Below the pieces are notes generated by a model that worked only from the letters and a program-made list of their open reading frames with translations, was not told where the DNA came from and did not search any database. Made by a program: the position numbers and the translations under genes. A stretch of DNA of 64,000 nt, taken from the NCBI GenBank assembly GCA_038204725.1, contig JBBRCQ010000010.1:9072-73071 (forward strand), read 5' to 3'. Every line of letters begins with the position of its first letter. The first letter of the stretch is position 1. Below are positions 14,497 to 17,280 of the stretch, one piece after another. The DNA is from Bacteroidales bacterium (lineage in GTDB: Bacteria; Bacteroidota; Bacteroidia; Bacteroidales; JACABE01).

Positions 14497-17280
14497 TTAG
14501 TATTTTCCAGCAAGTAATGAATAGATTATCAGTATCACAAGTATAATCCCAGTAAACAAGGCTATAAATCCAAATATTTTTACAAATTTAAGCCATGATT
14601 TAGTGATTTCTGTTTTAACAATATATTTCTCCATATCACCTGCTTCTTCCATTTTTTCAAATTCTTTGGGACGGTCAATTTTATATTCTTCCAATTCAAC
14701 ATGACCGGTAAAAATAACAGTATCCATTGGAAATGCTTCAGGACGCAAATGAGTATTGAAGAAATGAATAGTGAATATAAAAACTACAGCTAATAGTGCT
14801 TCATCACTATGTATAATTTGAGCTACATTAATAATCCAGCCGGGAAATATTTTGGTAAATATTTCAGGAAACCATAAAATTAAACCGGAGAATCCAATCA
14901 CAGCAACACCCCAAAAAACAGCCATATAATCAAACTTTTCCCAATAAGTCCATCTACCATATTTAGGACGTTCGCCCAACCATAAAAACCATTTAATAGT
15001 CGCAATGAAATCTATAACATCTTGTTTGTTAAACATTAATGTATTCGATCCAAAAATGAAAGATCCGATTTTTTTATTTTGGGCTTTTTTGAGTTTTAAT
15101 AAAGATACGATATGGAAAATAAAGTATCCAAAAGTAATTAATGCTGCAAAACGATGGATATTGCCTGCAATTTCAACACCACCCATTAATCTTGCAAAGT
15201 TATTTGCCCAGCTCATGTGGGCAAACTTAAGCATCATACCCGTAAAGGCTAACAATAAGAAGCTGAGTATTACAAAAATGTGAGTGATCCGCTGGCTTTT
15301 TGTAAATCGTCGGATGTATATTGCTTCTCCTTGTGGTAATGGATGACGTTTCTTTTTTCTGGCTTCAACAATGGAACGGGGAATCCATAAAAGTGTATGT
15401 ATTCCGAAAAATCCAAAAACACCAAAAAGCAATGAAGTCATACCCCAAAATGTATAATAAAGTATATTATTATCATTGTGGGTAGCATGAGATAAAAATC
15501 CTGTAAATTTCAGATTTGCATTGGCATGACATTTTTTACAGGTTTTTACAATGTATTTTTCTCCTACACTGGATTCGGGATTATTAATGTTCAGAATATT
15601 ATGTGCACCATGACAATCAGAACATCTAGCCGTTTTTAACTGACCCAGTGTATATGCTTTCCCATGATAGGTTTCCATATAGGAAGATGAAAGTTTTTCG
15701 TGACACGAGCCACATTGAATTGTAATCTGAGTTAAAAATTGATCTTTGTCGATTTCTGTAATCGTATGTGCTGTATGACAATTAGCACAAGTTGGATATT
15801 TTTTATCTTTTGTATTTTTTAAAATTGAATGATCACTGCTGATATATTCATTATAAATACTTTTATGACATTTTCCACAGGTTTTTGGGATTTGAAGCGG
15901 GTTTACCGTTGAATTAGGATCAGATTCCTTTAAAACATTATGTGAGGTGTGACAATCGGTACAAATCGCACTAGCTAGCAATCCTTTATTCATTAAACCT
16001 TTCCCATGAACACTCTTGGAATAATCACTAAAAGCATCTATTTCTTTTAAATTTGTATTGATAACAGCTTTTCCGTTTTTATTATGACACTTTCCACAAA
16101 GTTTCGGACTGTTTGCTCTGTTTGTTTCTGAATTCTCATCATATCTGCTTAATATAATATGTGTTCCATGACAATCGGTACAATAGGGTGCATTCGATTT
16201 TTTACCATAAAATGCCTGTCCATGTCCACTATTTATGTAAATATTCGAAACTGCTTCATGACATATAGAACAATCTACTTTACCTACTGTTTTACAGGGT
16301 CGAACATGGCTATTATCTTTAGTTACGTCAGCATGGCATTTATCACAGGCAATATTTTTATGAGGTGTATTCATAAAATCTTCATGATTGATTTTTAAGG
16401 ATACTTTTTTATTATTTACAATTTTAAAAGTATTATCAGACTCATGACATTTTGTACATACCTGATTGGATATGGAAATTTCTTCTTTTTGACGTTTTAT
16501 TTTATGTGATGAATGGCAATCGTTGCAACTGGGTATACTTCCCGCTTTCTTTTCCCATAATTCACTCTTTATAACCTTTTTATGAACCATTTCAATGTTA
16601 GTATGACATTTCATGCAGGTAGATGCAATTTTTTTACTAGAAGTAGTAGCCTGAGGATTGATATGGGGAAGTATCAAATGGTTCCCATGACAATCATTAC
16701 AAGTTGCTGAAACTATCAGTCCACTTTCTAACAATCCTTTTCCATGTATACTCTCACTGTAATTGGTGAGAATATTTTGCGTAGTTATGTTATATAATCG
16801 AGCAACCGGAGCGCCTTCTTTATGACATTTACCACACAAAACAGGAATGTTCATTTTATAAGTAACTGATTTTACATTGGTATGTGAAAGGACATCATGT
16901 TTTCCATGACATTCCTTACAATCAGGAGCATAAGGAGCATTAAATTTTAATGCCTGCCCATGAATACTAATACCAAATTGATATTCAGCATTTTTATGAC
17001 AACTGCCACAACTTACTTCCTTGAGATTTTCGGGATGAGGAAAATCTGTTACATTCGCATCTTTATGGCAAGATATACATTTTACATTTTTATGTATAGA
17101 ATTCCCAATTATACTTTTATTGACAAACAATGAAACGGTTTTGCCATTGGATACTTTTGTCAGGGTTTTATCACTATGGCAACCATAACAGTCATCATTC
17201 GTCTGTGAATATAAATTACCTGTAAAAAAAAGAAAACTCGTAATTACTAGTAATAGGATTGCCTTGATAACATTTAACAT
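14497..17280 (-). CDS. Multihaem cytochrome c (19 CxxCH) fused to a dihaem cytochrome b-like membrane domain (CbcL-like architecture)
   Basis: 927 aa. Signal peptide, then 19 CxxCH motifs (7 are CxxCHxxH) in residues about 30-590. About six TM helices follow, with the FdnI/HydC-type His pattern ([16 protein letters not shown]...FIFH, IIHSD...TIHFFNTH). Confidence 0.85.
   Translation of the reverse strand: [927 protein letters not shown]

Follow-up and report, generated by a model that had tools for sequence, protein, structure and literature searches.

A 19-haem cytochrome c fused to an FdnI-type dihaem cytochrome b in a Bacteroidales bacterium: an eight-haem duplication within the CbcL/MtrH/MtoC family

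The window analysed here, a stretch of 64,000 nucleotides (nt) from contig JBBRCQ010000010.1 (forward-strand positions 9,072 to 73,071) of the Bacteroidales bacterium assembly GCA_038204725.1, encodes on its reverse strand a protein of 927 amino acids (aa) that joins a multihaem cytochrome c to a cytochrome b (Table 1). The analysis shows a predicted Sec-exported periplasmic domain with 19 covalently bound c-type haems, which a transmembrane (TM) helix tethers to a four-helix cytochrome b of the FdnI type with two b haems; as judged from its sequence, the protein is a member of the CbcL/MtrH/MtoC family. Proteins of this family connect the quinone pool to electron transfer in the periplasm or outside the cell, serving as the point of entry or exit, and we consider it probable (about 0.7) that the window protein is an inner-membrane redox protein of this family that oxidizes menaquinol and exports the electrons through its 19-haem chain. 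The only member of the family that has been studied biochemically is the nine-haem CbcL of Geobacter. The 19-haem form is widespread in phyla of sediment and groundwater and also occurs in cultured isolates, which makes genetics possible. Moreover, this architecture has been catalogued since 2018, and the window gene is one more orthologue of a known, biochemically unstudied class, to which the present work adds the 8+8+3 anatomy of the haem domain, the mapping of four histidines onto FdnI, and a conserved Bacteroidota gene cluster.

Haem sites, membrane topology, and cytochrome b domain

The protein contains 19 CxxCH motifs, located at residues 31, 68, 91, 121, 149, 194, 222, 252, 275, 312, 337, 367, 395, 440, 468, 498, 523, 553, and 581, whereas about 0.09 would be expected from its own composition in Cys and His, and a motif scan of the same sequence found no CX3CH, CX4CH, or CxxCK variants. 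Seven of the 19 have the form CxxCHxxH. All the motifs are invariant across 34 orthologues (60–83% identity), and the number of further invariant histidines in the periplasmic domain of these orthologues is exactly 19, which fits bis-His ligation of every haem; hence, all 19 haems probably have two axial histidines. In the CbcL of Geobacter, bis-His ligation of the nine haems has been shown experimentally, and PpcA was reduced by the protein (PMC9129911). After residue 605, hydropathy and an AlphaFold2 (AF2) model agree on six TM helices, which the model places at 605–643, 661–685, 702–734, 779–803, 814–845, and 894–924, and direct reading of the sequence reveals loops rich in Lys and Arg at 636–661 and 733–782, so that the haem domain is placed on the periplasmic side. 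A first-pass annotation of this DNA, made from the letters alone, had counted 19 CxxCH motifs, seven of them CxxCHxxH, and about six C-terminal TM helices, and had proposed that c-type and dihaem b-type domains share a single polypeptide. Its count is exact and falls at the positions given above, every peptide that it quoted occurs where it was placed, and the combination of 19 c-type haem sites with an FdnI-type dihaem b domain is borne out by the sequence features.

The C-terminal domain matches the Pfam family Ni_hydr_CYTB (PF01292) over residues 658–837, with 42.9 bits against a cut-off of 30.1. Neither the whole protein nor its b domain by itself had a useful match in sequence searches of the PDB, and FdnI was reached through the family profile alone: a profile of 24 aligned, diverse b domains from the CbcL/MtrH/MtoC-type family finds FdnI of Escherichia coli (1kqf chain C) with E=1.9e-10. 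The histidines that are invariant in this alignment, H667, H709, H824, and H839, align with FdnI H18, H57, H155, and H169, which we take to be the four axial ligands of haems bC and bP, an assignment that reportedly goes back to Jormakka et al. in 2002. In the AF2 model, the b domain has a predicted local distance difference test score (pLDDT) of 70–86; its best PDB match is 1kqf_C (Foldseek probability 1.0, target-normalised template-modelling score 0.78), followed by the cytochrome b of hydrogenase-1. The layout of a dihaem cytochrome b with paired axial histidines, which had been proposed beforehand, is therefore upheld by PF01292, by the profile alignment with FdnI, and by the structural match. 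In addition, the most conserved segment is an invariant loop motif, WTYWEKFDY (777–785), that aligns with FdnI Y109–F117, a region in which N110, G112, and Q113 presumably contribute to the site for menaquinone or 2-heptyl-4-hydroxyquinoline N-oxide (HQNO) near the cytoplasmic haem. By this alignment, the site of electron exchange between the b domain and the menaquinone pool would lie close to the cytoplasmic-side haem.

Taken with the export signal preceding a multi-CxxCH domain, the approximately six TM helices, the ligand histidines of the b domain, and collinear homology established through proxies (see below), these features are those of the CbcL/MtrH/MtoC family. Identity as an Fdn subunit was considered and rejected, since the protein shares the FdnI fold but its scores against the formate dehydrogenase gamma equivalogs lie far under their cut-offs (38.4 bits against 115.85 for TIGR01583 and 29.4 against 341 for NF007924). 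Likewise, the protein gave only partial matches to the decahaem DmsE/MtrA family (TIGR03508, 79.3 bits against 192.2) and stayed below the cut-offs of the NapC/NirT/CymA/NrfH quinol dehydrogenases (TIGR02161, 22.7 bits against 310.6; NrfH, 16.2 against 134.2).

Table 1. Features of the 19-haem gene and of its neighbouring cluster (positions in the window)
Feature	Coordinates	Strand	Basis or remark
Whole gene: 19-haem cytochrome c + dihaem cytochrome b fusion, CbcL/MtrH/MtoC family, 927 aa	14497..17280	-	Open reading frame (ORF), motifs, Pfam, orthologues
Predicted signal peptide / N-terminal hydrophobic segment, aa 1-27	17200..17280	-	Hydropathy; AF2 helix 2-24
Haem unit A, aa 28-270, haems 1-8	16471..17199	-	Self-alignment; A units cluster across 19-haem proteins
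Haem unit B, aa 271-515, haems 9-16, paralogue of unit A	15736..16470	-	Self-alignment; 11-haem relatives collinear with 270-924
Membrane-proximal three-haem segment, aa 516-605, haems 17-19	15466..15735	-	Invariant H598 and H601
TM0 + FdnI-like four-helix dihaem b domain + C-terminal TM helix, aa 606-927	14497..15465	-	
Class-I cytochrome c with one haem, 130 aa, immediately upstream of the 19-haem gene	17426..17818	-	Also in loci L004, L007, L009
DUF5777 outer-membrane beta-barrel, predicted 12 strands	17872..18804	-	Pfam, 230 bits
Small monohaem lipoprotein, 123 aa	18875..19246	-	Lipobox LGSC, CTGCH; always paired with DUF5777
Crp/Fnr-family regulator	19823..20518	+	Conserved beside the cluster
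Hexahaem lipoprotein, 444 aa	20802..22136	+	Lipobox LSGC; conserved cluster member

Origin of the 19-haem domain

The haem domain was enlarged by duplication. Self-comparison aligns residues 60–280 with 303–528 (35% identity over 226 aa, E=1e-40) and pairs haems 2–9 with haems 10–17, while haem 1 pairs with haem 9 in an ungapped alignment of residues 27–72 with 271–316 (18/46 identities). The spacing of the motifs, (37 23 30 28 45 28 30 23)(37 25 30 28 45 28 30 25)(30 28), corresponds to an 8+8+3 layout. The paralogous segments with an eight-haem offset that had been noticed by eye are thus recovered by the self-alignment and by the pairing of the haems.

The haem number of relatives was surveyed in the 150 best of 2337 representatives that match the b domain alone (E<=0.001). 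Eleven is the commonest haem-bearing count (19 representatives); 17 representatives have nine haems, three have 19, the remaining haem-bearing ones have other counts ranging from 1 to 22, and 42 have none. Many of these last are short (~170–470 aa) and so are probably either fragments or b proteins that stand alone. The spacing in the 11-haem proteins is (37 23 30 28 45 28 30 25)(30 28), that is, 8+3; they are collinear with residues 270–924 of the window protein at 40–47% identity and give a second alignment with residues ~27–408 at 32–34% identity. From this collinearity and spacing it follows that the 19-haem form corresponds to the 11-haem form with one more eight-haem unit. Accordingly, the earlier description of a CbcL-type protein whose roughly nine-haem domain had been doubled stands as regards the CbcL type but not as regards the doubling, since an eight-haem unit has been added to an 11-haem (8+3) layout.

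A neighbour-joining tree groups the A units of 19-haem proteins across distant lineages, does the same for their B units, and pairs the two halves of a 22-haem protein of 1005 aa (P0129, 11+11) with each other. The former grouping indicates one old tandem duplication of the eight-haem unit in the 19-haem lineage, and the latter indicates at least one independent duplication elsewhere. The B units fall among the single units of the 11-haem proteins in the tree; pairwise identity does not separate the ancestral unit (29–39% for A and 30–41% for B against the single units). At the DNA level, the gene contains only short, degenerate, motif-level repeats (60–80% identity) and no long repeat.

Haem number is modular within the family, as exemplified by P0129 and by two further proteins. 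A Bacteroidota protein of 551 aa (P0121) has 7 motifs, yet its b domain is closest to that of the 19-haem protein (60% identity). Locus L005 carries a second multihaem-c/cytochrome-b fusion (14946–17336, reverse strand, 796 aa, 16 motifs) ~4 kb from its 19-haem gene.

Gene integrity and distribution

The gene is real and intact. Among the 120 best database matches (60–83% identity, from many independent assemblies), 109 keep 19 motifs in ~925–960 aa. In a scan of one genome per species, full-length matches (residues ~1–925, 44–79% identity) were found in at least 80 species representatives of about a dozen phyla. The carriers, as labelled, belong to Bacteroidota, Calditrichota, Ignavibacteria/Melioribacter, Aminicenantes, Acidobacteriota, Gemmatimonadota, Eisenbacteria, KSB1, Zixibacteria, Latescibacterota, Krumholzibacteriia, and Myxococcota, and include two cultured Bacteroidota isolates, Draconibacterium sediminis JN14CK-3 and Maribellus sp. 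YY47. The first-pass annotation had itself named an assembly chimera and a repeat artefact as concerns. An artefactual ORF, whether chimeric where the c and b parts meet or altered by the collapse or expansion of a repeat, has a single point in its favour, the metagenome-type contig from which the window is taken. It is refuted by the 19-motif orthologues of independent assemblies and the full-length matches in other species, two isolates among them, by the low protein identity of units A and B, by the short and degenerate character of the DNA repeats, and by the grouping of A units with A and of B units with B across phyla.

A conserved Bacteroidota gene cluster

Upstream of the 19-haem gene and on its strand lie the genes of the small lipoprotein, the DUF5777 barrel, and the monohaem cytochrome c, while those of the Crp/Fnr regulator and the hexahaem lipoprotein are divergent. 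A synteny survey of 86 related loci revealed a recurring order of Bacteroidota type, namely Crp, hexahaem lipoprotein, small lipoprotein, DUF5777, a cytochrome part, and the 19-haem gene, in which the slot before the 19-haem gene is variable and holds either a cytochrome c or a 7-haem cytochrome together with a cytochrome b. DUF5777 is syntenic in 26 of the 86 loci, all of them at or above 55% identity to the query, and the loci of other phyla lack it. The conserved Bacteroidota cluster of Crp/Fnr regulator, hexahaem lipoprotein, small monohaem lipoprotein, and DUF5777 barrel is new here.

In two of these loci, L003 (6306–13405) and L006 (6329–13445, from Prolixibacteraceae), the 19-haem gene lies between a pair formed by a 7-haem cytochrome and a 207-aa cytochrome b, judged CbcBA-like, and a gene for an ImcH-like protein of 500 aa with the motif spacing of published ImcH homologues; a 4-haem cytochrome and a ResB/CcsA fusion, for haem attachment, are encoded further on. 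The CbcBA-like and ImcH-like flanks support a role in respiratory electron export. Both loci hold homologues of all three types of Geobacter inner-membrane quinol oxidase side by side.

In the gap of 145 nt between the monohaem cytochrome c and the 19-haem gene, a stretch of 17 nt is repeated perfectly in inverted orientation across a spacer of 11 nt (17363–17407); a role in termination, attenuation, or RNA processing is possible for this hairpin. A scan for promoters and terminators gave counts not above those of shuffled sequence, and its simple terminator search missed this repeat because of the loop length.

On the other side of the 19-haem gene, 147–14185 is a respiratory gene neighbourhood. 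It begins with a radical-SAM enzyme, a ferrochelatase, and a flavin amine-oxidase-family protein (147–3607), read as haem biosynthesis, followed by a 4Fe-4S protein, an NrfD-like membrane protein, and a cytochrome c (4381–7589), which may form a reduced quinol:cytochrome c module resembling alternative complex III. Next come SCO1 (7971–8792), the subunits I, III, IV, and II-cytochrome c of a caa3-type oxidase (8800–12272), a UbiA-family prenyltransferase read as haem O synthase (12307–13143), TatC (13156–13977, reverse strand), and an ORF of 67 aa (13982–14185, reverse strand) that we assume to be TatA from its appearance. The caa3 oxidase neighbourhood implies that the carrier is not a strict anaerobe. 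A functional link of the 19-haem gene with the caa3 oxidase and the Tat genes was dropped, as their adjacency is conserved in none of the 86 related loci, and the haem-biosynthesis genes of the window are likewise not conserved neighbours.

The DUF5777 barrel and its haem lipoproteins

An AF2 model of DUF5777 from database homologues (pLDDT 87.4) has 12 strands, and its Foldseek matches are NanC, FapF, autotransporter, and Tsx barrels. No relevant mention of DUF5777 (PF19089) was found in the literature searched. A porin-cytochrome conduit, sought as a porin of at least 20 strands beside a periplasmic multihaem gene, was not found in the cluster, whose sole barrel is DUF5777, and the candidacy of DUF5777 as a conduit of the MtrB or Cyc2 type is weakened by the prediction of 12 strands.

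A lipoprotein of ~125–131 aa with one c-haem motif is always encoded directly upstream of DUF5777 (17872–19246 in the window, and loci L003–L032 and L087–L089). Its haem motif is CX2CH in the Bacteroidales and Prolixibacteraceae loci and CX4CH in those of Saprospiraceae and Cyclobacteriaceae; the Cys of the lipobox is invariant, as is the C-H pair, the column of the distal ligand holds His or Met, and the C-terminus carries WIxxGAxxN. The pair formed with DUF5777 also occurs without a 19-haem gene, in L089. Next to the pair, the window and 23 other loci encode a hexahaem c lipoprotein, and in Saprospiraceae and Cyclobacteriaceae loci the third gene encodes an EB_dh (PF09459) lipoprotein (4353–5561 in L087 and 4332–5609 in L088), a domain that we take to bind haem b. 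This suggests that the third component of the lipoprotein/DUF5777 module is interchangeable and may be of the hexahaem c or of the EB_dh type.

Proposed role and direction of electron flow

In the reading that we favour, electrons would pass from the menaquinone pool to the two b haems and on to the c-haem chain, which would carry them between the membrane and partners in the periplasm or the outer membrane. By analogy with CbcL of Geobacter, menaquinol oxidation with electron export would be the most likely direction. In Bacteroidota, the partners would likely be the monohaem cytochrome c, the small monohaem lipoprotein, and the hexahaem lipoprotein, under the control of the Crp/Fnr regulator. 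With a quinone site on the cytoplasmic side, as FdnI has, the oxidation of quinol would draw on the membrane potential instead of building it. The first-pass annotation suggested a periplasm-spanning wire; since MtrA spans about 80 Å with ten haems, a fully extended chain of 19 haems could approach 150–170 Å, a length comparable with that of the periplasm, and a single protein would then link the membrane to the outer membrane.

Several points weigh against menaquinol oxidation with electron export. The haem domain is poorly modelled by AF2 (pLDDT 35–67), and Foldseek returned no credible match for it. The homology to GSU0274, the CbcL of G. sulfurreducens, has been traced through proxies, namely nine-haem representatives, and through a published table. 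In the literature searched, no 19-haem member was found to have been studied functionally. Among the 86 loci, the neighbours of the 19-haem gene differ outside Bacteroidota. Moreover, the predicted 12-stranded DUF5777 barrel is probably not wide enough to enclose a cytochrome as MtrB does, and so offers no evident route for electrons across the outer membrane. Finally, the direction of electron flow is not readable from sequence, and the family includes MtoC of Fe(II) oxidizers, as stated in Zhong & Shi 2018 (PMC6295460).

The last of these points bears on the opposite direction, in which menaquinone would be reduced with electrons of extracellular or periplasmic origin, donated by Fe(II), a syntrophic partner, or a cathode, as proposed for MtoC; reduction at an FdnI-like quinone site on the cytoplasmic side would then generate proton-motive force. 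Besides the presence of MtoC in the family, in which no sequence feature separates oxidases from reductases, this direction agrees with the homology of the b domain to FdnI, a quinone reductase, and with the proximity of the window gene to monohaem cytochromes c and to the caa3 oxidase operon. However, the oxidase/TatC neighbourhood is not conserved in any related locus, and the co-location with ImcH-like and CbcBA-like genes points to the toolkit of metal reducers. The carriers are mostly metagenome-assembled genomes of uncultured sediment and groundwater organisms from a dozen phyla (as labelled), and we know of no lithotrophic iron oxidizer in any of these lineages. Reverse flow is therefore considered unlikely.

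The hexahaem lipoprotein raises another possibility, that the 19-haem protein, as NrfH or CymA does, serves as quinol dehydrogenase for a periplasmic reductase of soluble substrates, with the hexahaem protein as terminal enzyme and without extracellular transfer. The hexahaem protein scores 27.5 bits against a cut-off of 24.1 for Cytochrom_C552, the NrfA family of Pfam, and has faint PDB matches to nitrite reductases, but it lacks the catalytic CxxCK motif and also matches the MtrC/MtrF domain model at the cut-off. Similarly, control by Crp/Fnr is typical for the anaerobic respiration of soluble acceptors and the DUF5777 barrel resembles the small-solute channels NanC and Tsx, yet 19 haems far exceed those of the known quinol dehydrogenases of periplasmic reductases, and other phyla carry the 19-haem gene without a hexahaem neighbour. 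A role of this kind seems rather improbable, and menaquinol oxidation with electron export is preferred.

A more specific proposal for Bacteroidota, which we put forward as speculative and doubtful, is that the 19-haem chain spans the periplasm in place of soluble shuttles and feeds an outer-membrane module of small lipoprotein, DUF5777, and a third haem lipoprotein, which would constitute an undescribed system. This module is conserved across Bacteroidota and absent from the literature searched.

Comparison with known systems

FdnI, the cytochrome b556 of formate dehydrogenase-N of E. coli (1KQF chain C), shares with the b domain the four-helix dihaem fold and the four aligned axial histidines. 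It differs in being a separate subunit of 217 aa that receives electrons from an Fe-S subunit, whereas in the window protein the donor or acceptor is a multihaem c domain on the same chain, which also has two additional TM helices.

The closest systems belong to the family itself. CbcL (GSU0274) likewise combines an N-terminal multihaem c domain with a HydC/FdnI-like dihaem b domain of six TM helices in the inner membrane, with 619 aa and nine haems. Nine-haem representatives with a GSU0274-like spacing are collinear with residues ~316–924 of the window protein (33–37.5% identity, E 1e-104 to 1e-121). The membrane-proximal spacing differs, being 29, 28, 43, 28 in CbcL and 30, 25, 30, 28 in the window protein, as in MtoC-type and 11-haem forms. 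MtoC and MtrH, from Gallionella, Dechloromonas, and Rhodoferax, are of the same family, and the spacing of their last five haems (31, 25, 30, 28) is judged to be the same; representatives with the MtoC pattern have b domains 38–42% identical to that of the window protein, with 33% identity in the overall alignment. However, MtoC and MtrH have nine haems and their genes stand beside the porin-cytochrome genes mtoAB or mtrAB, whereas the window gene has no MtrB-type porin nearby. The 11-haem members from Verrucomicrobia, Planctomycetes, and Deltaproteobacteria (such as P0123 and P0140) are without the second eight-haem unit.

The available part of Zhong & Shi 2018 (PMC6295460) describes an iterative BLAST search started from G. 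sulfurreducens CbcL, MtoC, and MtrH, which returned homologues in 15 phyla with 3–23 CxxCH motifs, 416–1034 aa, usually six TM helices, and conserved histidines. Neither the duplication, nor the 8+8+3 layout, nor the DUF5777 cluster is discussed in that part of the paper. Its Table S2 lists many 19-motif CbcL/MtrH/MtoC homologues of 907–952 aa, for instance PLX00698.1 (Marinilabiliales), BAX79136.1 (Marinifilaceae), and PLX25239.1 (Salinivirgaceae), so that the novelty implied for the 19-haem form by the first-pass annotation does not hold: the form is widespread and was tabulated in 2018. The motifs of PLX00698.1, at 33, 70, 93, 123, 151, 196, 224, 254, 277, 314, 337, 367, 395, 440, 468, 498, 523, 553, and 581, nearly coincide with those of the window protein (31, 68, 91 ... 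581), and 17 of the matches with 60–66% identity to the window protein have the exact length and motif positions of BAX79136.1. The tabulated 19-haem homologues and the window protein are thus alike in architecture, six TM helices included, but differ in sequence, the window protein coming from another lineage of Bacteroidales.

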